Of a stretch of 64,000 bases of DNA, positions 4,800-57,074 are shown one piece after another. Origin of the DNA: Desulfomonilia bacterium (GTDB lineage Bacteria > Desulfobacterota > Desulfomonilia > UBA1062). The notes below the pieces were generated by a model. It had not been told where the DNA came from. It did not search any database and saw only the letters and a list, made by a program, of their open reading frames with translations. A program made the translations under genes and the position numbers. Within the stretch, counting starts at the first letter, position 1. Each line of letters begins with the position of its first letter. Location of the stretch: contig CAXXDQ010000004.1 in assembly GCA_963664325.2 (NCBI GenBank), forward strand, positions 384,001 to 448,000. Direction: 5' to 3'.

Positions 4800-6206
4800 A
4801 TGAAACCAGTGAAACTGATTCACATTATTTTAATAATTTTCATGCTATTCCTTTACGCCTGTGGCGGTGGCGGAGGAGGCGGTGGTGGAGGGAGTGACAC
4901 CCCCCCCGGCGGTGGTGAAGTTAAGAAACAGTATTCACTTACTGTTACCCACGAAGGCGAAGGAAGTGTATCGGTATCCCCATATTCCCAGGGTTTAGTG
5001 TACGATGAAGGAACAACGGTTTCGCTTGAAGCTGCAGCATCTTCTTCCGAATGGTCTTTTGACCACTGGGAAGGGACTATTGAGTCTACAGACTCAAATA
5101 TTGATATATCCATGAATCAGAATTATTCATTGAAAGCGGTTTTTATAAAAGTTGCGCAATCCCTTACAAGAGAACAGATTGAGAATGCACTCTATGCGGT
5201 TTATGGAGGGATCGGTTATAATGACAGGGAGGATACGAATGACGATGCGCTAATGTACAAGCTGATGGTGGATAACCTAAACTCGATAGGAATTGAGCTG
5301 ATTACGACCACAATTTCCGGTGATCCAAATTTTGCAACTAAACTACTGAGTTTATTACTCTTCCCCAGCGTCACCTTTACCTCAACTACATCAGGTTATA
5401 CATCTTCTATTACAATTAACAGAGAACCATTAAATAGTGGATACTATCCATTTAACGCCACTCTGTCGGTAGCATTCAATAGTAACGGTTATTCCTATGG
5501 ATCAGGTGCGGGAATGATTTATGGCACTGGTCAAGTTTCTGATTTTACAGCAACCTTTACTGGTGATTTTAAATACACGAATGATAGCCTGACCTTAATT
5601 ATCAGATCAGTCAGAGTAACTGCCGGGAATGGCCTCGAAACAATTGAAGGCGGTGTAACAACTTCTTATAATAATTGGGAGCTGGCCTATGACATTAACT
5701 ATGGTTCGGATGATCCGATGGGCGGTTCTGGAACACCTACAAACCTGGCCCTTATTGTCTCTTTTAATACGATCTCAGGCGACAAGACTTATGCCGACTT
5801 CAGGGATTATAAAGTGGGGGGCTCATTCACGACCAACGACAAGGAGTTTACCTTTGCCGATGGTTTCAGGTATAAACAGGAGCAGTATAATTATATAAGA
5901 AACAATACAACTGTCACATATGTCATAATGAGTGCAAACGGCTGGGTAAGCGTTCCAGGCCTGGAGGGTAACATTTCAGTTTCTTCTTCGATTGACAAAA
6001 TCAACCCGGATACATCTGGCACAATTATAACACATGTTTTTGAAAACAATGCTTGGTCAAGTAACTGGCTGTCAGGAAACCTTTCATTCGCAACCTCAGA
6101 AGGGACTGCTTCCGCAGTTTTTGATGATGGTTCTGTAGCATTTACAAGCGGTGCCGATTCATGGGTAGTCCCTGACTGGCAAACCGCTCTTAATCCGTTG
6201 GAATAA
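4800..6206 (+). CDS. Surface lipoprotein of unknown function with poly-Gly linker and one InlB-B-repeat-like domain
   Basis: Lipobox LYAC followed by Gly10; YSLTV..EGEGSV...YDEGTTVSLEA...WSFDHWEG...M..N.SLKAVF matches the bacterial repeat pattern; S/T/G/N-rich remainder. Confidence 0.8.
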   Translation: MKPVKLIHIILIIFMLFLYACGGGGGGGGGGSDTPPGGGEVKKQYSLTVTHEGEGSVSVSPYSQGLVYDEGTTVSLEAAASSSEWSFDHWEGTIESTDSNIDISMNQNYSLKAVFIKVAQSLTREQIENALYAVYGGIGYNDREDTNDDALMYKLMVDNLNSIGIELITTTISGDPNFATKLLSLLLFPSVTFTSTTSGYTSSITINREPLNSGYYPFNATLSVAFNSNGYSYGSGAGMIYGTGQVSDFTATFTGDFKYTNDSLTLIIRSVRVTAGNGLETIEGGVTTSYNNWELAYDINYGSDDPMGGSGTPTNLALIVSFNTISGDKTYADFRDYKVGGSFTTNDKEFTFADGFRYKQEQYNYIRNNTTVTYVIMSANGWVSVPGLEGNISVSSSIDKINPDTSGTIITHVFENNAWSSNWLSGNLSFATSEGTASAVFDDGSVAFTSGADSWVVPDWQTALNPLE

Positions 6207-6231
6207 TTATACCAGAACATAATCATAACCC

Positions 6232-6264
6232 GAAAAGGCCACGATAAAAGTGGCCTTTTCTTTT
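6232..6264 (+). terminator. Intrinsic terminator
   Basis: GAAAAGGCCAC-gataaaa-GTGGCCTTTTC, 11-bp stem followed by TTTT. Confidence 0.8.
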
Positions 6265-6343
6265 ATTCTAGAAAATATGGCAAAGTTTTTTTTGTCATTT
6301 AACAGATTGACTCTTAAAGAAATCCCGTCATATAAAAATCCTT

Positions 6344-6661
6344 ATGGAAATTAATTTGACAGAAATCATGAAACAGGTGCAGAACATCCAATCACAGGTA
6401 AAAGACGTTCAGGACAAACTCTCACGGCTTACAGTCGCTTCAGAAAGCGGTGGCGGAATGGTGACGGTAACTGTAACCGGAAGACAGGAAATAAAGGATA
6501 TAAAATTGGACCCGATCTGTGTTGATCCGAGGGATATCCCCATGCTTGAAGCCCTTATTATTGCAGCCGTCAATCAGGGAATTAAAAAATCAAAAGAGCT
6601 CTCTTCCGAAGAAATGAAAAAGTTGACCGGTGGAATCCCTCTTCCCATTGACTTGAGCTGA
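6344..6661 (+). CDS. ybaB: YbaB/EbfC nucleoid-associated protein
   Basis: MKQVQ..Q, SGGGMVTVTVTG, D..MLEALIIAAVN; directly upstream of recR. Confidence 0.92.
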   Translation: MEINLTEIMKQVQNIQSQVKDVQDKLSRLTVASESGGGMVTVTVTGRQEIKDIKLDPICVDPRDIPMLEALIIAAVNQGIKKSKELSSEEMKKLTGGIPLPIDLS

Positions 6662-8521: not shown

Positions 8522-10609
8522 TCATTGACCTGCAGCCTGTTTAAGGGCTTCCTTCCGGCTCAATCGTATTTTTCCATTTTTGTCGATTCCGATTACTTTA
8601 ACTACAATTTCGTCACCCTCGTTAACCACGTCACGTACATTCTGTACTTTTTCATTAGCAAGCTGTGATATGTGAACAAGCCCTGAATCTCCTGACGGGA
8701 AATCCACAAAGGCTCCGAAATCCATTATCTTGACTACTTTGCCAACATACACCTTATCGATTTCAAGCTCTTCTGTCAGGTTGTTTATAATGTCAACAGC
8801 CAGACGGGCATGTTCCTCATCCGGTGAAAAAACATTCACCTTGCCTGAATCATCTATCTCGATCTTTGTTCCGGTGCGGGCTGTGATATCTTTTATTACC
8901 TTTCCCCCAGGGCCTATTACGTCTCTTATTTTCTCAGGATTAATCTGAATGGTAAATATCCTGGGGGCATATTTTGATATCATATCGGAAGGTCTATCAA
9001 TGGTCTTTGACATTATATCCAGGATTTTGAGTCGGCCTACTCTGGCCTTTTCCAAGGCATCAGACAGGACCTTTTCGGGTATTCCTTCAATCTTGATATC
9101 CATTTGAAGTGCAGTGACACCATCTGTTGTTCCTGCGACTTTGAAATCCATATCCCCTAAATGATCTTCGTCTCCAAGAATATCGGTCAATACCATATAT
9201 TCTCCGGCCTCATGGATAAGCCCCATCGCTATTCCGGCCACAGGTTTTCCAAGTGGAACCCCAGCAGACATAAGGGACATTGATCCGCTGCAGACCGAAG
9301 CCATAGAAGAACTGCCATTGGATTCAAGTATTTCAGATACGAGCCTTATTGTATAAGGGAATTTCTCGATTTCTGGAAGAACCTGCCTGAGAGCCCTTTC
9401 CGCCAGGTTGCCATGTCCGATCTCGCGCCTGCTGGGTCCTCTTAACGGTTTTACCTCACCGACTGAAAACGGCGGGAAAGAATAATGCACCATGAAAGTC
9501 TTAGATGTCTCGCCGAGAAGGTTTTCCAACTTCTGCTCATCTCGGGGTGTTCCTAAGGTCGTTATTGCCAAGGCCTGGGTTTCTCCTCTTGTAAAAAGTG
9601 CCGACCCGTGGGTCCTTGGTAAAATCCCCGTTCTGCATTCTATATTTCTTATCTGGTCAAAATCCCTTCCGTCAACACGGATTCTTTTCTCATGCATTAA
9701 GGTCCTTACAACTTCCCGTTCCAGCTTTTCCATGCAGACTTTTACCATAGAAATCCGGTCTTCATCCTGGTCTGCATACCCATCAAGAATCTTCTGCCAG
9801 ACGGCTGAGGCCCCATCTCTTCTGCTCTGCTTAGTTGACCCAGGCGTAAAGACCTTATCCAAACTATCAGCAACAAGGTTCCTGATCTCTTTGTACAAAT
9901 TATCATCGCTGGCAGGCGGTACGGTCTTGATCTTCGGCTTGCCTGATAATTTTCGGAGCTCTTCCTGAGCATAGATAATTTCTCGAATTCTGGAATGGGC
10001 AAACATGATCGCATCAAGGATAATCTTTTCGGGAAGCTCCTTTGCTTCTCCTTCGACCATGACTATGGCGTCTTTCGTCCCAACAACGACAAGCTCCATA
10101 TCTCCCTGTTCGATCTGGCTGTATGTAGGATCAATTATAAACTCTTCGCCAACATGCCCAATTCTGACACCGCCTATAGGGCCTTCGAACGGGATGCTTG
10201 ATACGTGCAGTGCCGCAGAAGCTCCATTTATTGCCATTACATCAGGGTTAACCTGAGGATCGGCAGACAGAACGGAAGCAACGATTTGCAATTCATTGTA
10301 AAAGCCATCAGGAAATAGTGGCCTTATCGGCCTGTCAATGAATCTTGCAGTTAGTATTTCCTGGTCTGTTGGTCTTCCTTCCCTTTTAATAAAACCACCT
10401 GGAATCCTTCCTGCAGCATAAGACATTTCTTGATAATCAACTACAAGGGGCAGAAAATCCGTACCTTTTCTTACGTCTTTTGAAACTGTTGCAGTAACAA
10501 GGACAACGCTCTCCCCCTGATAAACCAAGACTGAGCCGTCAGCCTGCCTGGCAACCGTACCCACATCGAAGATGAGGGGTTTTTCAGAACCTTTAGTTTG
10601 AACCTGCAT
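8522..10609 (-). CDS. pnp: Polyribonucleotide nucleotidyltransferase
   Basis: FTRGETQ, RREIGHG, SNGSSSMAS, GDMDFKVAGT; KH and S1 domains. Confidence 0.98.
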   Translation of the reverse strand: MQVQTKGSEKPLIFDVGTVARQADGSVLVYQGESVVLVTATVSKDVRKGTDFLPLVVDYQEMSYAAGRIPGGFIKREGRPTDQEILTARFIDRPIRPLFPDGFYNELQIVASVLSADPQVNPDVMAINGASAALHVSSIPFEGPIGGVRIGHVGEEFIIDPTYSQIEQGDMELVVVGTKDAIVMVEGEAKELPEKIILDAIMFAHSRIREIIYAQEELRKLSGKPKIKTVPPASDDNLYKEIRNLVADSLDKVFTPGSTKQSRRDGASAVWQKILDGYADQDEDRISMVKVCMEKLEREVVRTLMHEKRIRVDGRDFDQIRNIECRTGILPRTHGSALFTRGETQALAITTLGTPRDEQKLENLLGETSKTFMVHYSFPPFSVGEVKPLRGPSRREIGHGNLAERALRQVLPEIEKFPYTIRLVSEILESNGSSSMASVCSGSMSLMSAGVPLGKPVAGIAMGLIHEAGEYMVLTDILGDEDHLGDMDFKVAGTTDGVTALQMDIKIEGIPEKVLSDALEKARVGRLKILDIMSKTIDRPSDMISKYAPRIFTIQINPEKIRDVIGPGGKVIKDITARTGTKIEIDDSGKVNVFSPDEEHARLAVDIINNLTEELEIDKVYVGKVVKIMDFGAFVDFPSGDSGLVHISQLANEKVQNVRDVVNEGDEIVVKVIGIDKNGKIRLSRKEALKQAAGQ

Positions 10610-10614
10610 AATGC

Positions 10615-10884
10615 CTACTTGCGCAGCTTAAGGGCTTTAGCGAGAGATCTGTATCTCTTGATGTCCCTTTCCTTGAGATAATTCAAAAGACGCTTGCGCT
10701 GACCGACCAGCATAAGGAGACCTCTTCTTGAATGGTGGTCTTTTTTGTGAGCCTTAAAATGATCTGTGAGAGAATTTATCCTGTTCGTAAGAAGTGCGAC
10801 CTGCACTTCCGGTGATCCGGTATCATTCTCATGGATCCTGAATTTTTCGATGACTTCCTTTTTTACCTGTAGTTCTAATCCCAC
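10615..10884 (-). CDS. rpsO: 30S ribosomal protein S15
   Basis: [24 protein letters not shown]; GTG start with AGGAGG. Confidence 0.98.
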
Positions 10885-10986
10885 TTTCTTCCTCCTGATT
10901 TTCTTTCTTCGCCTTTATTAGAGCGAAACGTTTAGCATGCCTTAAATACGCTGTAAATAGTTAATATGCCTTCTTCTTGCTGATTA

Positions 10987-11883
10987 TTAAAAGAATCCTC
11001 TTGCAATATATCCGAATATACCACCTGAACGTTTAACCCTTGCAACACATAGCAGATTGTCGTCTTCGTCCTGAATTGCCACAAAAGATTCATCTTCGGC
11101 AATTACATCATTGACCATTGTTGATATCAGCACCGGCTTTCCTTTGGTGATGGCATCTTTTCCTTCGGAATTGACCTTTGCAATGGGAAGATTGATTGCA
11201 TTTAGAAGTGATATTAAGATGTTCTTTCCTTCTGATGATCTTTTCTTAATCTCATCTATAGTCAATGCATTTTCAATTGAAAACCCCTCGCTTTTGAGTC
11301 TTCTTAATTCCCTCAGATATCCTCCGCATCCAATAAATTCTCCCATATTCCTGGCCAGAGACCGTATATAAGTTCCTCTGGAGCAAACAACCTTCATCTC
11401 TAATGATAAATTATCTATCGAAAGAATTTCTATTTTATGAATAGTTACATTTTTTGCCCTTGGACTAACGTCTTTATTCTGTCGTTTAAGCCTGTAAAGG
11501 GGTTTCCCGTTGAGTTTCTGTGCACAGTAAGCTGGCGGTATTTGGGTTATTTCTCCTGAATTGTTCTTTAACCATTCTTTAAGTTTTATATTATCAAAAT
11601 TTATGTTCTCAAATATTTTTTCAGCATTGCCTGTGACATCATCTGTATCTGTAAACATCTCCAAACCTACCGTGGCAATATAGGCCTTAATATTATCCTC
11701 CATAAATGGCAAAAGCTTTGTTCCGCTTCCAATACCTATGCACAACAAACCCGTTGCAAAGGGATCAAGGCTACCGAAATGACCCCCTTTTTTTTCACCT
11801 AATATTTTCAACACAACATCAACCGCTTTTCTTGATGTAATGCCTTTAGGTTTGTCAAGAAGAACTATCCCGTTTAAACCCAT
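10987..11883 (-). CDS. truB: tRNA pseudouridine(55) synthase
   Basis: LDKPKG.TS, GH.GSLDP.ATG, CSRGTYIRSL. Confidence 0.93.
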   Translation of the reverse strand: MGLNGIVLLDKPKGITSRKAVDVVLKILGEKKGGHFGSLDPFATGLLCIGIGSGTKLLPFMEDNIKAYIATVGLEMFTDTDDVTGNAEKIFENINFDNIKLKEWLKNNSGEITQIPPAYCAQKLNGKPLYRLKRQNKDVSPRAKNVTIHKIEILSIDNLSLEMKVVCSRGTYIRSLARNMGEFIGCGGYLRELRRLKSEGFSIENALTIDEIKKRSSEGKNILISLLNAINLPIAKVNSEGKDAITKGKPVLISTMVNDVIAEDESFVAIQDEDDNLLCVARVKRSGGIFGYIARGFF

Positions 11884-12791
11884 TTGGATCCTTCTTCCAT
11901 TACCCTGTTCAACAATAATGAGGCTTTTCCCTTAATAGAAAAACCTGCTGCACGTTCATGTCCTCCTCCTCCAAAGGCCAATGCCGTCATCAAGGCTGCA
12001 GGTCCGGATCTGCTCCTCATTGAACAGCGCACCATATCATCTTCTGCATCCCTTAAAAAAATGCAAAGCTCGGATCCGCCTATTGAAGCTATTTCCTCGA
12101 CAATACCTGACGCATCCTGTGGAGACGCACCAAGTCGATTTAAATCATCTTTAGTAATATATGTACCAAAAACAGGACCTCTGATTGATAGTCTTTCCAT
12201 GGCATGACATAAAAGTTTATAATACCAGAGAGTTTTACTTCTCTTGAGTTTAAGGGCTATAGAATAGGCATCCGCTCCGGATTTTGTCAGTTCATGAACT
12301 ATTTTAAAAATTCTTGGTTTGATGTTCGTATGCGTAAAGCCTCCGGTATCACCAAAGATTCCCATATAAAGATTTGATGCTATAGCCGGAGTTATTCTTG
12401 CAAATCCACATAGCAAATCATAAACCATCTCACAGGTGGAGGAATACTTGGGATCGACCCAACTGATATCCCCATATCCGTTATTTGATTTATGATGGTC
12501 AATCACAACTACTATCCCTTTTGGTTTTATATTTCCAAGCATCTCCATATCTGAAACATCCAAAAGAAAAGAAACATCCGGAGATTCACAGAAATAGTCT
12601 TTGTGAATTGGCGGTATTATATATTGTTCTGCAATAGATGTGGTGTATATGCGACCTGCTTTTTTGCCCAATCCAGAAAGGGCATGCGCAAGCGCAGATG
12701 TCGATCCAATAGCATCTTCGTCAGGAAGTTCATGGGTTAATATTTCAAAGGTGCGTTTCCCTTGAATTAATTCAATTATTTTATCCTTCAT
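11874..12791 (-). CDS. nrnA: DHH/DHHA1 phosphoesterase (NrnA-like)
   Basis: H..PD.DAIGS, IDHH, DTG and GGGH motifs. Confidence 0.85.
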   Translation of the reverse strand: MKDKIIELIQGKRTFEILTHELPDEDAIGSTSALAHALSGLGKKAGRIYTTSIAEQYIIPPIHKDYFCESPDVSFLLDVSDMEMLGNIKPKGIVVVIDHHKSNNGYGDISWVDPKYSSTCEMVYDLLCGFARITPAIASNLYMGIFGDTGGFTHTNIKPRIFKIVHELTKSGADAYSIALKLKRSKTLWYYKLLCHAMERLSIRGPVFGTYITKDDLNRLGASPQDASGIVEEIASIGGSELCIFLRDAEDDMVRCSMRSRSGPAALMTALAFGGGGHERAAGFSIKGKASLLLNRVMEEGSKWV

Positions 12792-13134
12792 CTATATGTA
12801 TCTTACTGAGTAATTCATCTATGTGAGTTCCGTAATCAAACGAACTGTCATATATAAACCCGAGTTCAGGGATCCGTCTTAAATCCAAAGTTCCCAACAT
12901 TTCATGCCTCAAAAAACCAGCAGCACTCTCCAGGCCTGCCAATGCCTCTTCTTTCAGCGCACTGTCATGAACACAGAAAAAAACGTTGGCCTTTCTCAAA
13001 TCGGCGCTCACTTCAACACCTGTAATAGTAAGATCGTGTACTCGAGGGTCCTTCACTTTCCTTAAAAGGATTTCCGTGATAGTCTCCTTTAATAGATCTG
13101 ATACCCTTGCCTGTCTTAATCTTCCCTGTTTCAT
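12781..13134 (-). CDS. rbfA: Ribosome-binding factor A
   Basis: KDPR, VEVSADLR.A, LRRIPEL.F.YD. Confidence 0.95.
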   Translation of the reverse strand: MKQGRLRQARVSDLLKETITEILLRKVKDPRVHDLTITGVEVSADLRKANVFFCVHDSALKEEALAGLESAAGFLRHEMLGTLDLRRIPELGFIYDSSFDYGTHIDELLSKIHIDEG

Positions 13135-18299: not shown

Positions 18300-18375
18300 T
18301 GGAGCGGGCAACGGGGTTCGAACCCGCGACATTCAGCTTGGGAAGCTGACACTCTACCAACTGAGCTATGCCCGC
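18300..18375 (-). tRNA. tRNA-Gly(CCC)
   Basis: GCGGGCATAGCTCAGTTGGTAGAGTGTCAGCTTCCCAAGCTGAATGTCGCGGGTTCGAACCCCGTTGCCCGCTCCA: 76 nt, full cloverleaf, anticodon CCC, encoded CCA. Confidence 0.97.
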
Positions 18376-47693: not shown

Positions 47694-48533
47694 TTATATA
47701 GGCTTCATGCCCAGGATTTTCCGGGCCTCTTCGGGGGTTGCCACTTCGCGCCCGATCTCACGCGCAAGTCGAACCACCCTTTCAGCCAGCTGGGCGTTGC
47801 TTTTTGCGAGCTCCCCTTTTTTATAATAGATGTTGTCCTCAAGGCCGACCCGGACGTTTCCGCCCATAATCAATGAAGCCACGTTCATCTCCATCTGAAA
47901 GCGCCCTATCCCGGATACGTTGAAGATCGAGCCTTCCGGCAGGAGATCTATCATGGAAAGCAGGTTTTTTGTCGTTCCGGCATATCCGCCCATGCCGTCA
48001 ACGCCCATGACGCAGTTAATGTAATAAGGCTTTTTGAGCAGGTTTTTCCTGATAAGGTTTTCGACTTCGCCGAACATCGACGGATTGTAAACTTCCAGTT
48101 CGGGCTTGATGTCCAGTTCAATCATTTTAGCGGCGAACGCCTCTATTTCACTGCGCAGGTTCATGAACAGGCTTTCCTTTTTCTCTTTTCCAATGAAAAA
48201 CACAACGGAACCCATATTGAGAGATGCGGATTCGGGCCCGGCATTGAGGCTTAAAACCCGTTCATTTATCGGGATGCCAACACCGCCGGTCGTATTCTGT
48301 ATGATGACAGGGCATTTCGCCCTGATGCCTGAATTGATCTCCTTGAATATTTCGGCGTTGCCTATGCTTCGGCCCTGTTTATCCCGGGCATGCAGGTGAA
48401 CGATAGAAACTCCTGCATTATAGCAGTCGTAAGCATCCTTTATGATTTCATCAGGCTGCTCGGGCAGGTTCGGGTTTGCCTCCTTGCCCTGCATCGCTCC
48501 TGTGAGCGCCGCAGTTATTATAAGTTTTTCCAT
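47694..48533 (-). CDS. Beta-keto acid cleavage enzyme family (DUF849/Kce-like)
   Basis: IITAA.TG, HLHARD zinc ligands, TTGG, PELE, VRVGLED. Confidence 0.92.
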   Translation of the reverse strand: MEKLIITAALTGAMQGKEANPNLPEQPDEIIKDAYDCYNAGVSIVHLHARDKQGRSIGNAEIFKEINSGIRAKCPVIIQNTTGGVGIPINERVLSLNAGPESASLNMGSVVFFIGKEKKESLFMNLRSEIEAFAAKMIELDIKPELEVYNPSMFGEVENLIRKNLLKKPYYINCVMGVDGMGGYAGTTKNLLSMIDLLPEGSIFNVSGIGRFQMEMNVASLIMGGNVRVGLEDNIYYKKGELAKSNAQLAERVVRLAREIGREVATPEEARKILGMKPI

Positions 48534-48626: not shown

Positions 48627-51266
48627 CTACTTTATTAAAATTCTCAGGGGCCTGCTTTTCGATATGGTTATCTTGTTATCAAGCAGAAGTTCTCCCTTTT
48701 TCTGAACAAAGCCGATCTCTGTTTCGCCAAGCAATAATTTCTTTACCGTACTTTTTGAAAGGTAAGGAAGATTGATGCGGCGCAGAATGAGGTTGCCGTA
48801 AAGCACTCTGATCTCGGTAAATACTTTTTGCTTGTACACTTCACCCCAGCCAGAGGAGAGTGACCAGAAGCATCTGAATCGGTCATGAGTATGCCAGATG
48901 ACTGGATTGAAGCCGATCAGGCCCTTGGCCGTATCGAATTCAAATCCGCTGAACGCGTTAAGCAGGGCATAACTCGCCATTGACCGGGCATAATTGCTGC
49001 CGCATTCAAACTCGTTGAACGGGTTGCGCTTTTCGCCGTCGTAGCGCTCGCGCACGGCTTTCACGACAGACATGCCTTCCTTGACCATGCCTCTCTGTAT
49101 CATATGGCCAGCAGCCGCATATTCATAGCCGTTCTGCGTTTCCTGCGAATAGGTCAAAGGGATCGAAGGCCGGGGCCTTTTACCTGGCCACTCGCAAACG
49201 ATCAGCCCCTTTTCGTCGTTAATGCAGTATACCCGGCAGGGGTTGGGAAAATCGCGCATGGATTTAAAGTTGTATTTGTAAAGGGAAGCGAGAGATTTTT
49301 TTGTCTGTACAGGGTCGAAGATTTCACCGAGCCCATACAGGTTCGCATGCCACTGTGCAAGCACCTGGTCGATGTCGCACCCCTGACCTATCTGATATTT
49401 GATCTCAGCGTGCTCTGCATCCCAGTATTCACCTGCAGCATCGAATTTTTCAGGAATGGTTTTGTCTTTCAGATCAATAAGCTGGCAATAATATTCTCCG
49501 CCATAAAGGTTGGCATCAGCCCAGGCCTTTCCTTTCCTGAACAGGGTCATATATTCCGAGGCCGTAACCGTTTCACCTAGATGGTCGGCCATTTCAGCTC
49601 CGGCCTTCAGGGCCGCCAGGTAAAATCCCGTCAGCCATGAGTTCGGGCCGAACAGCTCCATGTCGAGCGTATGATGCTGGCGCCCCTGAAGTACCCCCGT
49701 TTTTTCCGGGTCCCATGCGTCTATATTGGTTTCAGCCCAGGCAAACTCGATGGACTTCCTGACTGCAGGCCAGATGTTTTTCAGCCAGGTCGTGTCACCG
49801 CTTATTTTCCAGTCGCGGTAAACCTTGAGTACATTTCCGAAAAGCCCGTCTGCGCAGGACCTTCCGCCCTGGTCGTCAGAGCCTACAGAGCCGCCCGCTC
49901 CCCCGGGATGCATAATTCCCAGGGGCAGTTTGAGGCGGAATGGCATGCCGCCGTTTGGCTGCTGGTTGTAGCGATAATCGGCGTCCCGCATGGACCTCTC
50001 AAGTTTCGGAAAAAGAAACGGAAGGGCCTGGGCGTAGTTCCAGACATGAGTGCACGAGCCCTCACAGCAGCCTGTATTGCAGAAGCATCCCTCCCACCCG
50101 TAAAAGGTCCCGTCTTCAAGCCTCATGACGGACGGTGATTTGAGTACGGACAGGTTTGACGATACGGCTTCGATAGCCTCAACCGGCAGGTCGGAAGCCC
50201 AAAGAGCGTTCTTGAAAAGAAGAGTCTCTTTGTAAAGGCGGTCCTGGTTTTTAAGAGCGTAGATGCCGCTTTCCTTCGAATCCTTCCATATGATTGCATA
50301 GTAGTTCTTCCATGTTAACGGTATGCCCGCTTTTTTTGCGAGTTCCGTGGCGTTAGCGTCCCAGTAGTTCTGGCAGTTGGGAAAGTTCCAGCTGATGACA
50401 AATCTGACGCTTTTTCTTGCTCCGGGTTTAATCAACATATGCGCAGCAAGCGTGCCGTGATTATATCCTCCGGCCTGCTCCGGACTGTATATGCGGTTAG
50501 CAAGCCTGCCGGGCGTGGTCATGTCCTTCCAGTAGATTTCAAGGCTGTCGAACCAGTTGCCCCTGTACCAGTACTGCTGGGCGCTAACATCTTTTGCGTC
50601 GGTCGAAATGCACAGATCGCCGAATCCCGGGTCAATGGGCTTGAAGAAATCGGCTGTCATGAACAGGGAAGTAATGCCGTCTTCTTTTGAAATCATGTTG
50701 CTGCTCACTCCGGGCAGCGAGTTTGTCAGAGTTCCCGTGATTGTATAAAGAACCGGTTTTGAGTATGTGTTTTTAACCTCGATATCGAAAAAGGCCGCCG
50801 GGATGCCGGAATCCATGTCGTTAAGGGGAATGAACGGATTGAACGCTGTCAAGATCACATTTCCCGGAAACCTCTTTTCTTTAAAATCAAGCTTGGCGAT
50901 CGGATATTCTCCGGTGAATTCGACCGATCTGAAATGGGGAAGGCCTGCCAGGAATTCCCTCGCCGGACCGAAGCCATAGCCGGTGCCGCTGCCCGTATAT
51001 GGCGGGTGCAGGTCTCCGTTCAGTATCCTGGCATCCAGGATTTTACCGCCGCTTTCCGCCCTGACAGCAAAATGTGAAAAGCCGTTTACACTGCCCTTGT
51101 TGGGCCGGTTGAAGATCTCCCAGTCGATCAGCCTGCCGTTTCCTGCAAGTCCGATGCAGCCAGACCCGATGCCGCCGATAGGGAAGCTTATTTCTTTAAG
51201 TTGCTGCTTTCTGTATATGCGGGGAGAGCCTTTTTCATGGTTATTTTTAGCGGATTGCCGTGCCAT
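48627..51266 (-). CDS. Glycoside hydrolase family 116 protein
   Basis: [45 protein letters not shown]. Confidence 0.88.
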
Positions 51267-51483
51267 GCTTGCCTCCTTGCCAATGTCTTATGATTTTCAT
51301 CGTTGACCGGCCTTTTCTGAAAAGGGCCGGTTTTTTCGGGAGATTGAAGTATAAGTTTTTTTAGATAGGTTTCCAATAAGATTTCTCTGAAATTTCGGGA
51401 AGAAAAATAAGGCAACTTTTTATTCGGAAAAACCAAAATGAAGAAACAGCTCCTGCTGGGCTTTATAGATACAAATCCGGTGA

Positions 51484-53055
51484 TCAGAAGGCCCTTGCAA
51501 GGATTGCATCGGCGGCCCTGACGCCGTCGACAGCAGAACTTACTATGCCGCCTGCATACCCGGCGCCTTCGCCTGCCGGGTACAAACCGGACACGGAAAC
51601 GGACTGCATATCGTCACCGCGCAGTATGCGAAGAGGGGAAGATGTCCTGGTCTCGACTCCGATGAGCACTGCCTCTTCCGTCATAAATCCCTTCATCCTT
51701 TTTTCGAAATGTCTTAATGCCAGCCTTATTTCGGAGGCGATCCACTCAGGTAGATAAGAGTGGTCTGACGGTTTGATGCCGGGCAGGAAAGATGAAGCAG
51801 GAAGATCACCGCAGGTTTTTTTTGCGGCAAACGAGGTGATACGCTGGGCCGGGGCGCAAAAACCGCCGCCGCCTGCGGCAAAGGCGGCCTTTTCGAGTGA
51901 CCGTTGAAAATTTATGCCTGCCAGGATATCCCCCTTAATGTCATCCGGCCCTATGGTTACCACTATGGCGGCATTTGAAAAGAGGCCGTCCCTTTTGGAA
52001 AAACTCATACCGTTTGTACAGAGCATGCCGGGCTCCGATGAGGAATTGATAACCTCCCCGCCCGGGCACATGCAGAAGGAATATGTCCCGCGGCCGGTAG
52101 ACTTGTTGTTGAATGTCAATACGTACTCCGCTGCGGGAAGCACCCCTTTTCCGGCAACAGGCCCGTATTGCATACGGTTGATGAGTTCCGCAGGATGCTC
52201 GGCCCTGAGACCTATAGCGAACCCTTTTTTTGTTAAGGAGACGCCAGAGCCTTCAAGCATTTCATAGGTGTCACGGGCGGAATGACCTGTTGCCAGCACC
52301 ACTGCGTCAGCAAGGTATTCGTTGCCCGTTTCCGTAATAAAACCTTTAACCTTTGAATCGTGTAAGATAAGCGAGACGGCCTTTTCGGAAAAATAAATTC
52401 GCGATCCCGAATTCAGAATATATTTCCTTATATTTCTGATTATTACTCTAAGCGTGTCCGTGCCCAGATGAGGTTTCTGCTCATACCTTATTTCTTCAGG
52501 GGCGCCCATTTCAACAAGCCTGTCAAACATCCAGGCGATTTCAGGTCTGCGGGTTCGGGTCGTGAGCTTGCCGTCGGAATATGTTCCGGCACCACCCTCT
52601 CCGAAAAGCACGTTGCTGTCTATATTGAGGAGTCCTCTTTGTTTGAGCTGTTCGATGTCCGCAATCCTTTCTTCAACGGGCTTGCCCCTTTCTATTATTG
52701 TTGCCGTACCGCCTGCTTCAATAAGCCTTAATGCACAGAATAGTCCGGCTGGACCGGACCCGGCTATGATTACCCTGGGAAGGCTCGCCAGACGCCGAGC
52801 CGGAATGTTCAAAGGCGATTCAGTCTTGATGCTTATCCCGGGGATCTTCAGCAGACGCCGGGCATCTTCCTCAGAGACATCAGCTTCGATTCTGTAACAC
52901 CATACGATAGCAGCCTTGTTGCGGGCATCAAGCGATTTCCTGAGAATTTTAAACGGGGTGCTGCCCGGCAGGTTATATAGACTTACAAGTTTTCCAGAAA
53001 GGCCGTCTGAATTTTCGAACGGCGAGAGTTCAATGGAATCAAAAACGAGGTTCAT
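51484..53055 (-). CDS. Uncharacterised FAD-dependent oxidoreductase
   Basis: GSGPAG, ERG, FGEGGAGTYSDGKL, FCMCPGG, ETRTSSP, GEGAGYAGGI.S.A.DG. Confidence 0.9.
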   Translation of the reverse strand: MNLVFDSIELSPFENSDGLSGKLVSLYNLPGSTPFKILRKSLDARNKAAIVWCYRIEADVSEEDARRLLKIPGISIKTESPLNIPARRLASLPRVIIAGSGPAGLFCALRLIEAGGTATIIERGKPVEERIADIEQLKQRGLLNIDSNVLFGEGGAGTYSDGKLTTRTRRPEIAWMFDRLVEMGAPEEIRYEQKPHLGTDTLRVIIRNIRKYILNSGSRIYFSEKAVSLILHDSKVKGFITETGNEYLADAVVLATGHSARDTYEMLEGSGVSLTKKGFAIGLRAEHPAELINRMQYGPVAGKGVLPAAEYVLTFNNKSTGRGTYSFCMCPGGEVINSSSEPGMLCTNGMSFSKRDGLFSNAAIVVTIGPDDIKGDILAGINFQRSLEKAAFAAGGGGFCAPAQRITSFAAKKTCGDLPASSFLPGIKPSDHSYLPEWIASEIRLALRHFEKRMKGFMTEEAVLIGVETRTSSPLRILRGDDMQSVSVSGLYPAGEGAGYAGGIVSSAVDGVRAADAILARAF

Positions 53056-53561
53056 TTAGGTTTTCTTCGAAGTGCCTTTACGTAAATGATTTTTCCGTCT
53101 CCAGGCATGTAGTAGTCTTTAAGGAAGGCTTCCTTTTTGTAGCCGCAGCGCTTGTAAAATGCCTGTGTCGGGATATACAGGTCCCTTGCCGAAGTCTCGA
53201 TATAAATACGCCTGCAGCCCACAGCAGATGCAATTTTTTCAGTCTCCTTCAGAAGGGATTCGCCAATGCCTTTCCTCTGATGCCGGGGATGTACGGCGAT
53301 CCAGTACAGGTCGAAACTGCCGAAGGTGCAGGGTATTTCTCCGAAGCACGTATATCCTGCAATGTGACCGGCAATATCCGCAAAAAGAAAACTGTACCCG
53401 CTCTCTGTTCCGTATTCCAGCCTGTCGAGAGCAAGTTCAACACCGATCTCTATTTCCTCATGATGGAAAAAGCCGGTTAAAGTGAGTATTTCATGGATGG
53501 AAGCGATATCTTCCTTACGTATGTCATGCCTGAAAACAAGTTCAGGGTTTAACATAAGCAT
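53052..53561 (-). CDS. GNAT-family N-acetyltransferase
   Basis: LYWIAV...Q.KGIG motif A; FY...GY. Confidence 0.9.
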   Translation of the reverse strand: MLMLNPELVFRHDIRKEDIASIHEILTLTGFFHHEEIEIGVELALDRLEYGTESGYSFLFADIAGHIAGYTCFGEIPCTFGSFDLYWIAVHPRHQRKGIGESLLKETEKIASAVGCRRIYIETSARDLYIPTQAFYKRCGYKKEAFLKDYYMPGDGKIIYVKALRRKPK

Positions 53562-54551
53562 TTAATGGCAGGCTGCTGTAATAATCTGACCGATTGTCTG
53601 GGCGTAGCTCAGCCCGGTCTCCTGCGCGGCGGCGGCTAATCCGCTTTCAGGCTGCAGGCACGGATTTGCGTTTATTTCAAGCACCCAGGGCTTGCCTAGA
53701 GTGTCCACCCTGAAGTCAACCCTTGCATATCCCTTGAGGCCGAAGATCTTCCAGCATTTAAGCGTCATTTTTTTCAGTGTGTCGACAAGCTCGTCCTCTC
53801 CTTCGAGGTTGAAACTTCTTTTAGTCATGTCATATTCAGGCGAGTCCTCCGCCCATTTTGCCTTGTAATCCATGATGGGGAGCATGCCTTCATTATGAAG
53901 GAAGTGCATCTCCGCAGGAGGCATGACCTTTATACCCCCCGGCGTATCCATTATTGATATATTAAATTCCCGGCCTTCGATAAACCGCTCTGCAAAACAT
54001 GGTTTGCCGATTATTTCCGAGCGCAGTCTGGTCCGGTCTTCAACGTCTTCAATGTTTACAGCCGTGATAACGGCCTCCGAATCAAGCCCGATAGAGGCGT
54101 CTTCAAAAACAGGTTTGATGATGTAACGATCCGGGAAAGGCAGCCGTGTAAATGGTCTTTCGCCTGGTATAATCCAAGGGGCCGTACAGACTCCTCTTGC
54201 CAGCAGCATTTTTTTGGTCAGCACTTTATTTGTAGTGATCATGATCGATTCTGATGATGAGCCGGTAAAAGGAATGCCCCAATATTCAAACATGGCCGGT
54301 GCCAGATATGAAAGCCTGCTGGATCCCATGACTGATTCCACAAGGTTGAATACGCAAAGCGGGTTATCATTTTTAATGATTCCCAGCATTTCGTCGGGCC
54401 TCATGAAAAACGGCCTTGTCACAGATTCAAGCCCCAAATCAAGGATTGCCTTTGATATCTCCTCTGCGGCTGAGACGACTTCTTTTTCGTCTTCAGGAGA
54501 ATCATCAGTAACCGGATTGTGGAAAATTGTAACCTTCTGTTTTTCAATCAT
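53562..54551 (-). CDS. D-Ala-D-Ala-ligase-like ATP-grasp enzyme (paralog 2)
   Basis: PFTGS, K..TK, IIKP..EDASIG, E.FIEGREF, GYARVDFR, LEINANP. Confidence 0.88.
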   Translation of the reverse strand: MIEKQKVTIFHNPVTDDSPEDEKEVVSAAEEISKAILDLGLESVTRPFFMRPDEMLGIIKNDNPLCVFNLVESVMGSSRLSYLAPAMFEYWGIPFTGSSSESIMITTNKVLTKKMLLARGVCTAPWIIPGERPFTRLPFPDRYIIKPVFEDASIGLDSEAVITAVNIEDVEDRTRLRSEIIGKPCFAERFIEGREFNISIMDTPGGIKVMPPAEMHFLHNEGMLPIMDYKAKWAEDSPEYDMTKRSFNLEGEDELVDTLKKMTLKCWKIFGLKGYARVDFRVDTLGKPWVLEINANPCLQPESGLAAAAQETGLSYAQTIGQIITAACH

Positions 54552-55528
54552 ACCGTCACCCTCTTTTGAGCTGATGTCATTATTTCTTCAATTACAGTCT
54601 GATAACTGATACCGTTCAGCCTTGCTATAATCGGGAGATCCGAATGCACGGGATTGAGCCCTGCAAGAGGGTTAGCTTCGATGAAATTCAGGATCCCCTT
54701 TTCATCCATGCGGATATCTATACGGCCGGCATCGCGACAGCCCAGGCCCTTCCATGCCTTCAGGGCCAGCTCCGAGCATGCATTCAAAATGTCTTCTTCG
54801 GGGATGTGGTAATCAATAATCTGTTCATAATTGCTTTTGTTGTAATAGGAATAAATCAGTTCTTCGCTCTGAGCTTTTTTTAAAAAAACTTCCATTGCCC
54901 CGACACATTTGGAATCTTCGCCGGTGCCGATTATCCCTGCGGTAAATTCCCTCCCGGGAAGATACGTTTCGGCGATCAGTGGCTGTTTGTATGAAGCGAG
55001 CAGCCGGGAGACAGTAGTTTTCAGTGTTTTCAGGCTATCGACCTTTGACGTGCCGTCAATGCCTTTTCCCGTGCCTTCGCAGGCTGGCTTGATGAACAGG
55101 GGATACGGAAGGTCGATGGCGTCGGTTTCCGTTTCGTTTTCGATTATGGCGAAATCCGCAGTCGTTACCCCGTAATGCCTGACGATTGATTTGGTAATGC
55201 CTTTGTGAAGGCATACTGAAAGCACAAGAGGGTCGGAAAACGTATAAGGGATTCGATAGGCGTCAAGAAGCGCCGGAACAAGAGATTCGCGGCCGGCACC
55301 ATACATGCCCTCCGCGATATTGAACACCATATCCCAGGTTTTTCCTGATGCAAGTTTTTGTATGAGTTCTTTTGCGTTTCCGACGCGCTCCGTATCATAT
55401 CCCAGGGCAACCAAGGCGTTTTCAATGGCCTCTATGGTCTCAAGACTGTCAAACTCTGCTGCTTCTTCTTTGGAAAAACCCTCTCTCAGGTAATCGTCTT
55501 TAAGGTCATATGTCAGGCCGATCAGCAT
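54548..55528 (-). CDS. D-Ala-D-Ala-ligase-like ATP-grasp enzyme (paralog 1)
   Basis: FNIAEG, IPYT, FIKP..EGTGKGI, E.YLPGREF, RIDIR, IEANP. Confidence 0.88.
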   Translation of the reverse strand: MLIGLTYDLKDDYLREGFSKEEAAEFDSLETIEAIENALVALGYDTERVGNAKELIQKLASGKTWDMVFNIAEGMYGAGRESLVPALLDAYRIPYTFSDPLVLSVCLHKGITKSIVRHYGVTTADFAIIENETETDAIDLPYPLFIKPACEGTGKGIDGTSKVDSLKTLKTTVSRLLASYKQPLIAETYLPGREFTAGIIGTGEDSKCVGAMEVFLKKAQSEELIYSYYNKSNYEQIIDYHIPEEDILNACSELALKAWKGLGCRDAGRIDIRMDEKGILNFIEANPLAGLNPVHSDLPIIARLNGISYQTVIEEIMTSAQKRVTV

Positions 55529-55541
55529 CTTATGTATAATC

Positions 55542-56822
55542 CTAATTGTTGTCCGGATATCTGATTAGGCGACCCTCGTAGTTTCTAAGCAGAAGGTCGT
55601 TACCAATGTTACCCAGGTTGTGCTGAGGAAGAATGGCTATTTTACCGCCGCCGCCGGGAGTGTCGATGACATAATGCGGCACGGCGTATCCCGTTGTATG
55701 GCCTCTTAGATTTTCTATCATTTCCAGACCCCTGCTGACCGGAGTTCTGAAATGCGACGAACCGATAATCGGGTCGCACTGGTACAGATAGTAAGGTCTT
55801 ACCCGTATTTTAAGCAGACCCGTGAACAGCTTTTTCAAAGTTTCAGCGTCATCGTTTATCCCTTTGAGCAGCACGGTCTGGCTTCCCATGGGTACCCCGG
55901 CATCCGCAAGAAGCCCGCAGGCAGCGCTTGTTTCAGGTGTGAGTTCGTCCGGATGGGTGAAGTGAATGCTCATCCACAGAGGCTGGTTTTTGCGAAGGAT
56001 CCTTAAAAGCCGCGATGTAATGCGGTATGGAAGCACAACCGGCACCTTTGTGCCGATGCGTATCATCTCCACATGAGGGATGGCCCTGATTCTGGAAATG
56101 AGATAATCAAGATCGGCGCTGGGCAGCGTCAAAGGATCTCCGCCTGAGAGCAGGACATCGCGCACTTCTTTCGTTGATTCGATATACTCGATCGCCTTTT
56201 CCCACTGCAGTCTGCTCACCCTGAATCTGTTGTTTCCGACCATGCGGGAACGTGTGCAGTAACGGCAATATGTCGAACAGAAACCGGTTGTCAGGAAAAG
56301 CACTCTGTCAGGATAACGGTGGACGATTCCCGGCACCGGGCTCTGGTGATCTTCTCCGAGCGGGTCTTTTTCTTCCCCGATGCTTCTTATGAATTCATTT
56401 TCCACAGGAATGACTGCACGCCTGATCGGGTGGCGGTCATTGAACTGATCGATAAGGCTTGTGTAATAGGGAGTTATCCTGACCGGCAGACGTGTACTGT
56501 CCGTCCTGTTGAGCGCAGATTCTTCTTTGGGTGAAAGTTTTATGAATCTCTGCAGATCGGCAACGGAGCGCAGACTGTTCTGAAGCTGCCATTTCCAGTT
56601 CGACCAGTCGGAGAGGCTCACATGAGGAAAAAATTCGTGGACGAATTCTCGTGTCGAATTGCTTGCAGGGATAAGACCAGAAAAAGGCCTTTTAAAACCG
56701 GTTATCGATAGAACGGGCTCGGCCGCTGTTAGGGACGGAGGCTCTTCCGGGATCTCGTTTACAAGGGGCGGGGGTTCTTCTGAAGTTATCGCCAACTCAG
56801 TTACCATACTCGGTTTTGCCAT
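55542..56822 (-). CDS. KamA-family radical SAM enzyme (lysine 2,3-aminomutase-like)
   Basis: HRYPDRVL, CSTYCRYCTR, SGGDPL, YQCD, DTPGGGGK (PLP lysine). Confidence 0.93.
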   Translation of the reverse strand: MAKPSMVTELAITSEEPPPLVNEIPEEPPSLTAAEPVLSITGFKRPFSGLIPASNSTREFVHEFFPHVSLSDWSNWKWQLQNSLRSVADLQRFIKLSPKEESALNRTDSTRLPVRITPYYTSLIDQFNDRHPIRRAVIPVENEFIRSIGEEKDPLGEDHQSPVPGIVHRYPDRVLFLTTGFCSTYCRYCTRSRMVGNNRFRVSRLQWEKAIEYIESTKEVRDVLLSGGDPLTLPSADLDYLISRIRAIPHVEMIRIGTKVPVVLPYRITSRLLRILRKNQPLWMSIHFTHPDELTPETSAACGLLADAGVPMGSQTVLLKGINDDAETLKKLFTGLLKIRVRPYYLYQCDPIIGSSHFRTPVSRGLEMIENLRGHTTGYAVPHYVIDTPGGGGKIAILPQHNLGNIGNDLLLRNYEGRLIRYPDNN

Positions 56823-57074
56823 CTTAAATTCTCCTTAATCAGCTTTATCGGTGCCCGTAATAAAATACTTTAAAAAAAATACTATAAATTGACCAAAAAC
56901 TAGGGCTGCTGGCCGTTCCGAGTTGCATCTATAATTCGCATATAGAGAATAAAAAAAATATTTGTCAATGTTTTTATGAGAAAAAAAAGATGATATTTTT
57001 TTGCATCCAATGCCGCTCTGGACGAAACCTTTGATTTGTGTGTAAATAAGCTTTATTCAAGAACCGGAGGAGAT

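Follow-up and report, generated by a model that had tools for sequence, protein, structure and literature searches.

The locus described here lies within a 64,000-nucleotide (nt) stretch of a Desulfomonilia bacterium genome (assembly GCA_963664325.2, contig CAXXDQ010000004.1, positions 384,001 to 448,000), referred to below as the window. Five genes follow one another on its minus strand. The first encodes KamA, a cassette-type lysine 2,3-aminomutase of 426 amino acids (aa) that is recognized by both Pfam and NCBIfam (55542–56822). Two ATP-grasp ligases of the Ddl superfamily come next, each with a Dala_Dala_lig_C domain: Lig1 (54548–55528, 326 aa) and the more divergent Lig2 (53562–54551, 329 aa). 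The last two genes encode a small GNAT N-acetyltransferase of 169 aa (53052–53561) and a COG2509-type FAD protein of 523 aa (51484–53055), which belongs to family PF21688. Our subject is the first four genes, referred to as the cassette, and the product that they may make.

KamA and Lig1 are separated by a 13-nt gap (TAG gattatacataag ATG), Lig1 and Lig2 overlap in an ATGA, the stop codon of Lig2 abuts the start codon of GNAT (TAA directly followed by ATG), and a second ATGA overlap joins GNAT to the FAD gene. The list of open reading frames (ORFs) and the sequence bear out the initial annotation of the window with respect to the five same-strand genes, their coordinates and their junctions, and the motifs that it quoted for KamA, Lig1, and Lig2 are all found in the translations.

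Conservation and natural fusions of the cassette

A Lig1 scan of species-representative genomes yielded 23 loci, from Bacteroidota, Spirochaetota, Planctomycetota, Omnitrophota, Ignavibacteriales, and Deferribacteraceae, together with two close relatives of the window. A scan of metagenomes with a Lig1 alignment gave 575 confirmed relatives, of which the best 80 were kept. One archaeal homolog, 29% identical (L023), was dropped, and the 102 resulting loci were scored by tblastn. Of the 92 loci that could be evaluated for it, 85 have KamA immediately before Lig1, one of them as a 196-aa remnant. The gene after Lig1 is Lig2 in 76 of 86 evaluable loci and GNAT comes next in 53 of 69, and KamA, Lig2, and GNAT are all present in 38 of the 53 loci with enough sequence on both sides. 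GNAT is missing from every locus that lacks Lig2 (10 of 10), and six loci have Lig2 without GNAT. Lig1 is the tightest partner of KamA.

The order KamA–Lig1–Lig2–GNAT is kept in a high-GC genome where Lig1 is only 36% identical, and likewise in two genomes from another genus of the window's own family. The recurrence of these four genes in the same order in many phyla shows that the arrangement is not due to chance. The flanking genes vary by lineage, which is what a self-contained module would show. Apart from the MFS gene described below, the downstream genes of loci that lack Lig2 or GNAT have no recurring pattern; they encode ABC binding proteins, MCP, PhoU/PHO4, QueC, and peptidases. Of 301 genomes sampled from the window's phylum, 74, representing 50 of 201 genera, contain a Lig1 ortholog (E ≤ 1e-60). 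In this sample, with the tables compared by hand, a KamA-family gene is present in 73 of the 74 Lig1-positive genomes versus 103 of the 227 Lig1-negative ones.

The initial annotation described a five-gene operon and named a non-conserved neighborhood as an argument against its reading. The survey of the 102 loci shows KamA, Lig1, Lig2, and GNAT kept together, whereas the flavoenzyme gene follows the cassette in only two loci, L001 and L002, whose Lig1 is 80–81% identical to that of the window. The conserved unit is four genes, KamA–Lig1–Lig2–GNAT, with the FAD gene excluded.

The genes of the cassette are also found joined in single proteins. There are 151 longer relatives of Lig1 at E ≤ 1e-40, and the 120 listed among them were classified by blastp. 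Of these clusters, 90 are Lig1–Lig2 fusions, 24 are KamA–Lig1 fusions, two are Lig1–Lig2–GNAT fusions, three are double Lig1-like proteins, and one falls outside these types. A query with Lig2 for longer relatives added four Lig2–GNAT fusions. The domain order was confirmed by Pfam for one example of each fusion type, and in one locus (L051) reading of the DNA reveals that KamA and Lig1 share a single in-frame ORF of 786 aa, with Lig2 and GNAT after it. Fusions thus exist for all neighboring pairs of the cassette and invariably follow the gene order. They provide the strongest evidence that the four proteins serve one pathway, with Lig1 and Lig2 working side by side. An apparent KamA–Lig1 fusion in L012 and frames of ~754 aa in genomes of family f52 were rejected as artefacts, being long open frames in high-GC DNA.

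A structural model of the Lig1–Lig2 pair reached a score of 0.38, with 0.00 for the best control. In a benchmark, 58 of 80 solved complexes attained the same mark, as did 2 of 110 mismatched pairs; scores at 0.60 or under comprise 7 of the 80 solved complexes and both mismatches. The runs, which used our own alignments as input, agree in at least 90% of the contacts, and the partners have a pLDDT of at least 82. Homodimers of Ddl have already been solved, so the result may stem from the memory of the model. The modeling gives weak support to a contact between Lig1 and Lig2. The initial annotation had the two ligases acting in sequence or as a heterodimer: joint action is backed by the 90 of 120 fusion clusters, and the heterodimer itself by this weak modeling support.

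Other arrangements and labels were encountered during the survey. The locus L118 of genome G190 has a lone Lig1-like gene (5541–6509) and, ~4 kb away, KamA followed by a second Lig1-like gene (10296–12001). The archaeal homolog on the Nitrosopumilaceae contig (L023, 4193–6163) is a 657-aa protein whose Ddl-like part is the one 29% identical to Lig1; it joins the Lig2 side of the ligase tree described below with weak support (87/82). The taxon labels of the nearest records conflict: L001 and L002 are labeled 'uncultured Bacteriovoracaceae bacterium', and the closest named Lig1 proteins (P0010 and P0059) 'Desulfomonilia bacterium'.

The aminomutase, the two ligases, and the acetyltransferase

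KamA is a radical-SAM enzyme and scores 346.8 bits against TIGR00238, above the cut-off of 199.2. Its best NCBIfam model is AblA; the models for glutamate and arginine aminomutases score lower (395.8 and 380.3), and the EpmB model gives 253.6 bits, below its cut-off of 369.3. Residues 62–423 align to the lysine 2,3-aminomutase of Clostridium (PDB 2A5H) with an E-value of 3.6e-126. They are preceded by a variable, proline-rich extension of ~60 aa, and the C-terminal ~50 residues of the clostridial enzyme are absent. KamA contains the motifs CSTYCRYCTR (CSTYCRYC being residues 182–189), YQCD, and DTPGGGGK. Asp350, Asp387, and Lys394 correspond to Asp293, Asp330, and Lys337 of 2A5H, with positions counted on the printed chain. 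We take the two aspartates of 2A5H to bind the ε-amine of lysine and Lys337 to carry pyridoxal phosphate. The three Fe-S cluster cysteines of CxxxCxxC, Asp350, Asp387, and Lys394 are invariant in all 63 full-length cassette KamA proteins. In agreement with the initial annotation, which named β-lysine as the expected product, KamA is predicted to convert L-lysine into β-lysine. The cassette proteins appear to constitute a distinct KamA subtype.

The window genome contains a single KamA-family gene. Two Lutibacter cassettes lack KamA, and both genomes carry a canonical KamA elsewhere; the one in Lutibacter G001 reaches 624.8 bits with the AblA model and lies within a kdd–kamA–kamB–kamC lysine-fermentation cluster. 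In these loci (L018, 5648–6238; L112, 394–4079) a gene for a GNAT–histone deacetylase (HDAC) protein, described below, heads the cassette instead of KamA, and L018 has a KamA remnant of 196 aa ahead of the cassette. The Lutibacter pattern represents a single evolutionary event, yet it is what would be expected if the cassette just needs a source of β-lysine.

Through automatic annotation, databases label both ligases D-alanine–D-alanine ligase, and their best PDB matches are Ddl and VanA. The label is almost certainly wrong. Against the NCBIfam Ddl model, which has a cut-off of 243 bits, Lig1 scores 159 and Lig2 114.3, and both are below all Ddl and Van cut-offs. The window genome has its own Ddl, a separate gene elsewhere that scores 293.7 bits, and a separate, better-scoring Ddl was found in all five other cassette genomes searched. 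In a tree of 39 sequences, Lig1 (100/100), Lig2 (100/99), and true Ddl (100/97) form three separate groups, and Lig1 and Lig2 are not sisters. The scores and the well-supported separate clades both uphold the proposal of the initial annotation that the ligases are distinct from housekeeping Ddl. The same genome has a fourth Ddl-like gene (G000:C8:306195-306974), which is very divergent (84.4 bits on the Ddl model) and forms a long branch beside true Ddl in the tree.

The nucleotide and metal ligands of the ATP-grasp fold (K, E, R-x-D, and E-x-N) are aligned and conserved in both ligases. They lie in the motifs KP, LPGREF, RID, and EAN in Lig1 and KP, EGREF, RVD, and EIN in Lig2; in place of the LHG..GEDG segment of true Ddl, the proteins have FNIAEGMYG and FNLVESVMG, respectively. 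Residues His63, Ser150, Tyr216, and Leu282 of Escherichia coli DdlB, which we take to define the D-Ala site, are changed in both. The histidine of the LHG segment (His63) is replaced by a glutamate that is invariant in Lig1 and nearly invariant in Lig2. With respect to PDB 1IOV, Ser150 becomes Ala, Tyr216 Trp, and Leu282 Gly in Lig2, and the equivalent residues in Lig1 are Thr, Ser, and an invariant Asp. Lig1 furthermore has an invariant N-terminal motif, GLTYDL..DY..G..EE.AEFD..TI, in which the acidic residues Glu21, Glu22, Glu25, and Asp27 are all invariant. Lig2 has a conserved loop, KW.EDS.EY..T.R, and gives weak matches to TTL (E 0.0042). We infer only that the additional carboxylates of the substrate sites would be suited to a diamino acid, for instance β-lysine.

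The cassette GNAT scores 17.2 bits against the AblB model TIGR03827, which has a cut-off of 205.1, and its 169 aa compare with 266 model positions; the protein is not AblB. Its best PDB match is the uncharacterized 2R7H (E 4.3e-36), whose deposited title, 'putative D-alanine N-acetyltransferase', is a name only. A locus tag tentatively linked to 2R7H led only to an unrelated gene in PMC8836040.

In 10 of the 102 loci, a protein of ~580 aa adjoins the cassette, with a weakly GNAT-like N-terminus and a domain of the histone deacetylase family; in L019 it and the cassette GNAT form a single protein. The closest solved relatives of this HDAC partner are acetylpolyamine amidohydrolases (APAHs), with E-values of 1.1e-72 (9GKZ), 1.1e-70, and 7.3e-62, and HDAC6 comes behind them. 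This similarity points to the deacetylation of a small aminoalkyl compound. In four loci of the spirochaete type (L006, L007, L077, and L093), KamA and Lig1 are followed by a transporter of the major facilitator superfamily (MFS), 741–747 aa long and with C-terminal HEAT repeats. These four loci lack Lig2 and GNAT. Proteins of ~95 aa, some with signal peptides, are encoded just upstream of KamA in L045, L052, L057, L064, L066, L089, L103, L105, and L108. They have no Pfam family; a role as carrier or substrate of the cassette was rejected, since the number of such loci is too small.

Proposed product and alternative explanations

We favor, as reasonably likely, a reading in which the four-gene cassette makes a small N-acetylated peptide or amide that contains β-lysine. 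KamA would convert L-lysine into β-lysine, as suggested by its conserved catalytic and substrate residues, and Lig1 would use β-lysine in an ATP-dependent amide ligation of the acyl-phosphate type, the chemistry of its family. Lig2, probably associated with Lig1, would form a second amide bond. GNAT would then acetylate a free amine of the product or of the substrate of Lig2. In some lineages, the APAH-like deacetylase could reverse this acetylation, and the MFS protein that follows Lig1 in the spirochaete-type loci could export the product. Such a product would be small and soluble, and would either stay in the cytoplasm as a solute or leave the cell as an exported metabolite. The initial annotation had β-lysine joined into a small peptide, a cell-wall precursor, or a protein. 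The recurrence of an APAH-like deacetylase and an MFS transporter as accessories makes a soluble small molecule the most likely of these, and a cell-wall or protein target less likely.

The closest known system is AblA/AblB, which makes N-ε-acetyl-β-lysine, a compatible solute of methanogens and some bacteria. As in the cassette, an aminomutase and a GNAT are encoded in one operon, and AblA is the best NCBIfam model of the cassette KamA (469.5 bits). In contrast to AblA/AblB, the cassette has two ATP-grasp ligases inserted between the aminomutase and the acetyltransferase, its KamA scores too low for the AblA cut-off and does not extend into the C-terminal part of the model, and its GNAT is of another type. 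The two inserted ligases, the different GNAT, and the apparently distinct KamA subtype would be what is new with respect to AblA/AblB.

Other systems share single features with the cassette. Ddl and VanA are the best solved relatives of the ligases and have the same ATP-grasp fold, in which KP, E..GREF, RxD, and ExN are kept; the cassette ligases differ in their scores below the cut-offs, their separate clades, and their altered D-Ala positions and N-terminal domain. The NAGGN pathway (Ngg) and the RimK-like synthesis of NAAG are GNAT/ATP-grasp makers of small acetylated peptides and include GNAT–ligase fusions. By this analogy, they share with the cassette the logic of N-acetylation plus ATP-grasp ligation, as well as the fusions. 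However, they employ ATP-grasp enzymes of the RimK or cyanophycin type, no aminomutase, and no β-amino acid, whereas the cassette ligases are Ddl-like. In EpmB/EpmA, an aminomutase of the KamA family likewise feeds β-lysine to an ATP-dependent ligase, but that ligase is a paralog of LysRS and not an ATP-grasp enzyme, and the cassette KamA scores below the EpmB cut-off. The cassette GNAT and the APAH-like deacetylase present in 10 of 102 loci could toggle the acetylation of an aminoalkyl group, as acetylpolyamine amidohydrolases and polyamine acetyltransferases do. The amines of β-lysine are also acetylated in streptothricin resistance. The cassette has no polyamine or streptothricin genes, and the link is one of analogy alone. 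The fermentation of lysine (KamA–KamDE–Kdd–Kce) differs again, in that no Kdd, KamD, or KamB was detected in the window genome, mainly on the strength of tblastn.

In bacteria and archaea, β-lysine is known as an osmolyte precursor, a modifier of elongation factor P (EF-P), a fermentation intermediate, and an antibiotic building block. If our reading is correct, the cassette represents a fifth, ribosome-independent use of this amino acid, and Lig1 and Lig2 represent two new ATP-grasp specificities for the ligation of β-amino acids. In one large phylum, approximately a quarter of the sampled genomes (74 of 301) carry the cassette, which is also present in at least five further phyla. The unit is compact, self-contained, and often fused, which makes it directly testable by heterologous expression. 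Our literature searches, carried out at the level of abstracts, found no published account of the KamA–Lig1–Lig2–GNAT arrangement; within the same scope, they gave no characterized product for it, as the initial annotation had supposed.

Several points weigh against this reading. The activities and substrates of the four proteins, and their product, are predicted from the genes, and the sequences do not single out the ligase site that would take β-lysine or its co-substrates. Against the AblA equivalog model, KamA remains below the cut-off of 525.4 bits and matches positions 3–360 of 417. The N-terminal ~60 residues of Lig1 align to no solved Ddl. Adjacent KamA is lacking in 7 of 92 loci and Lig2 in 10 of 86, and a Lig1-positive genome that is 93% complete (G191) gave no KamA match. 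The 80 metagenome loci, being the best of 575, are biased toward nearer relatives, and genomes that are related do not count as independent. The fusions are automatic gene calls on metagenomes, checked in the DNA for one (L051). The link to the MFS transporter probably reflects a single lineage.

A bolder form of this reading, which we regard as doubtful, is that the product is a polycationic peptide of the oligo-β-lysine type, with Lig1 and Lig2 each adding a cationic unit. It is equally doubtful that GNAT and the APAH-like deacetylase would then switch its charge or activity and that, in the lineage of the window, a private branch of FAD and β-keto-acid cleavage enzymes would recycle β-lysine. 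Such a product would constitute a previously unknown, widespread polyamine- or streptothricin-like metabolite of anaerobic bacteria.

Among the alternatives to a small acetylated product, the modification of a protein comes first, and we consider it improbable. Here, Lig1 with Lig2 would place β-lysine on a side chain or terminus of a protein, for example on the tip lysine of EF-P, and GNAT would acetylate the adduct. In EpmA/EpmB, a KamA paralog is known to serve the β-lysylation of EF-P. Consistent with such a role, the window genome encodes a single EF-P whose loop is of the lysine type (KPGKGGAF), its sole KamA-family gene is that of the cassette, and no EpmA is found in it above the cut-off (the best match to the EpmA model, in a 541-aa frame, scores 228.7 versus 286.9); the weak matches of Lig2 to TTL point in the same direction. 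However, the cassette has no conserved candidate target gene and is present in just 74 of the 301 phylum genomes, and its KamA scores below the EpmB cut-off. Free amino acids are the substrates of the nearest characterized relatives of both ligases, and the accessory proteins, a deacetylase closest to amidohydrolases of small molecules and an MFS transporter, also argue against a protein target.

We rate as slightly less probable still that the Ddl-like ligases make a β-lysine dipeptide for peptidoglycan or another envelope polymer. Their superfamily and the deposited name of 2R7H, a name only, would fit such a precursor. In contrast, the neighbors of the cassette in the window include no mur, fem, or polysaccharide genes, and no such gene recurs in the 102 loci, where the flanks vary by lineage; the residues that hold D-Ala in DdlB are changed; and a separate, better-scoring Ddl is present in all six genomes checked, that of the window included.

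The FAD gene and a nearby gene on the minus strand for a Kce-like β-keto-acid cleavage enzyme (BKACE; 47694–48533, 310.2 bits on the Kce model with a cut-off of 382) raise the question of a catabolic route. The FAD protein scores 223.5 bits against PF21688, for which the gathering score is 27, and its closest solved relative is the uncharacterized VP0956 (PDB 3NLC, E 1.1e-116). No homolog was found in G213, G119, and G047, the three genomes of the same family that were searched, nor in G021; G213 has no FAD gene after GNAT, and in G072 a homolog is located on another contig. Since its start overlaps the stop of GNAT in this lineage only, the FAD gene is a recent lineage-specific addition outside the conserved pathway. 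Through the translational coupling to GNAT, it is probably co-expressed with the cassette in this lineage. The oxidation step that the initial annotation had considered accordingly falls outside the conserved pathway, as the FAD gene follows the cassette in two of 102 loci and was not found in the three searched genomes of the same family.

BKACE adjoins the cassette region in 1 of the 102 loci: in L002 it lies directly after the FAD gene (12158–12994). In the window, it is located ~3 kb downstream of the operon, and a GH116 glycosidase gene (48627–51266, minus strand), which looks like an insertion, lies between FAD and BKACE. BKACE, which the initial annotation left unmentioned, is possibly a lineage-specific accessory. 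Neither family searches nor tblastn with the Kdd and KamB of Lutibacter detected Kdd, KamD, or KamB in the window genome; this absence relies mainly on tblastn, since the controls of the family searches matched in no genome. BKACE is therefore left without its classical substrate route. We speculate that a private branch oxidizes (acetyl-)β-lysine to a 3-keto acid and then cleaves it, which would fit the chemistry; the FAD gene, and possibly BKACE, would be a genus-level add-on, perhaps for the turnover of β-lysine.

That the cassette as a whole serves such a route in this lineage, degrading lysine via β-lysine with the ligases in a side role, is in our view very improbable. GNAT would form N6-acetyl-β-lysine, the FAD enzyme would oxidize C3 to yield a β-keto acid, and BKACE would cleave it with acetyl-CoA, each an equally improbable assignment. 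The model for this route is the older pathway of lysine degradation in Pseudomonas B4. The presence of KamA, GNAT, an FAD oxidoreductase, and a Kce-like BKACE together in the window and in L002 is in line with it, as are the lack of Kdd and KamD/KamB in the genome, which again depends mainly on tblastn, and the deacetylase beside the cassette elsewhere. However, the route leaves the two ligases unexplained, although KamA has no better-conserved partners and occurs in fusions with them; FAD and BKACE accompany the cassette in two and one of the 102 loci, all close relatives of the window; and the FAD family is without known function.

Finally, it is scarcely credible that the ligases are ordinary D-Ala–D-Ala or D-Ala–D-X paralogs of the Ddl/Van type that merely lie beside KamA, as their database name and best PDB matches would have it, given their scores of 159 and 114 against 243, the true Ddl elsewhere in the genome, their separate clades, the replacement of the LHG..GEDG segment, of the Ser150 and Tyr216 equivalents, and of the N-terminal motif, and the fusions to KamA and GNAT.

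Flanking genes and regulatory regions

The operon is flanked on one side by leuS, an lptE-like gene, a holA-like gene, and a gene for a sigma-54 activator, and on the other side by the GH116 gene, BKACE, and prfC. No efp, epmA, kamDE, or mur genes were found in the flanks of the window locus by Pfam and NCBIfam searches, as the initial annotation had stated.

The divergent intergenic region between leuS and kamA (56823–57035, not assigned to a strand) presumably contains the promoter and leader of the operon. It is 94% identical among the window, L001, and L002, compared with 80–92% for the flanking proteins. An AAGGAG is located 8 nt before the ATG of KamA. Searches of this region for a riboswitch or leader gave no Rfam family at gathering or E-value thresholds and no stable fold (z-score 0.58). 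The region also contains a TTGACA (56968–56963), followed 16–18 nt later by TCTATATG, a pair that the promoter scan did not list. A candidate sigma-54 site, GGGCAC-N5-AAGCT, lies 20 nt before the KamA ATG and matches at 8 of 12 positions; it was rejected for the window because neither L001 nor L002 retains the –12 GC of this site.

A GC-rich hairpin (CCGGCCCTTTT-CAG-AAAAGGCCGG; 51307–51330, no strand assigned) within the 217-nt gap after the FAD gene possibly marks the end of the operon. Its T-run is on the opposite strand, and it is absent from the list of the terminator scan. The sole Rfam match at gathering score in the window is a tRNA gene on the minus strand (18303–18375).

In other loci, good sigma-54 sites (9–12 of 12 positions) are observed upstream of KamA in 8 of 60 cases, compared with 1.3% of shuffled sequences. 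These are L052, L057, L064, L043, L074, L085, L108, and L071. A sigma-54 activator gene is also present in L045, L052, L057, and L064.

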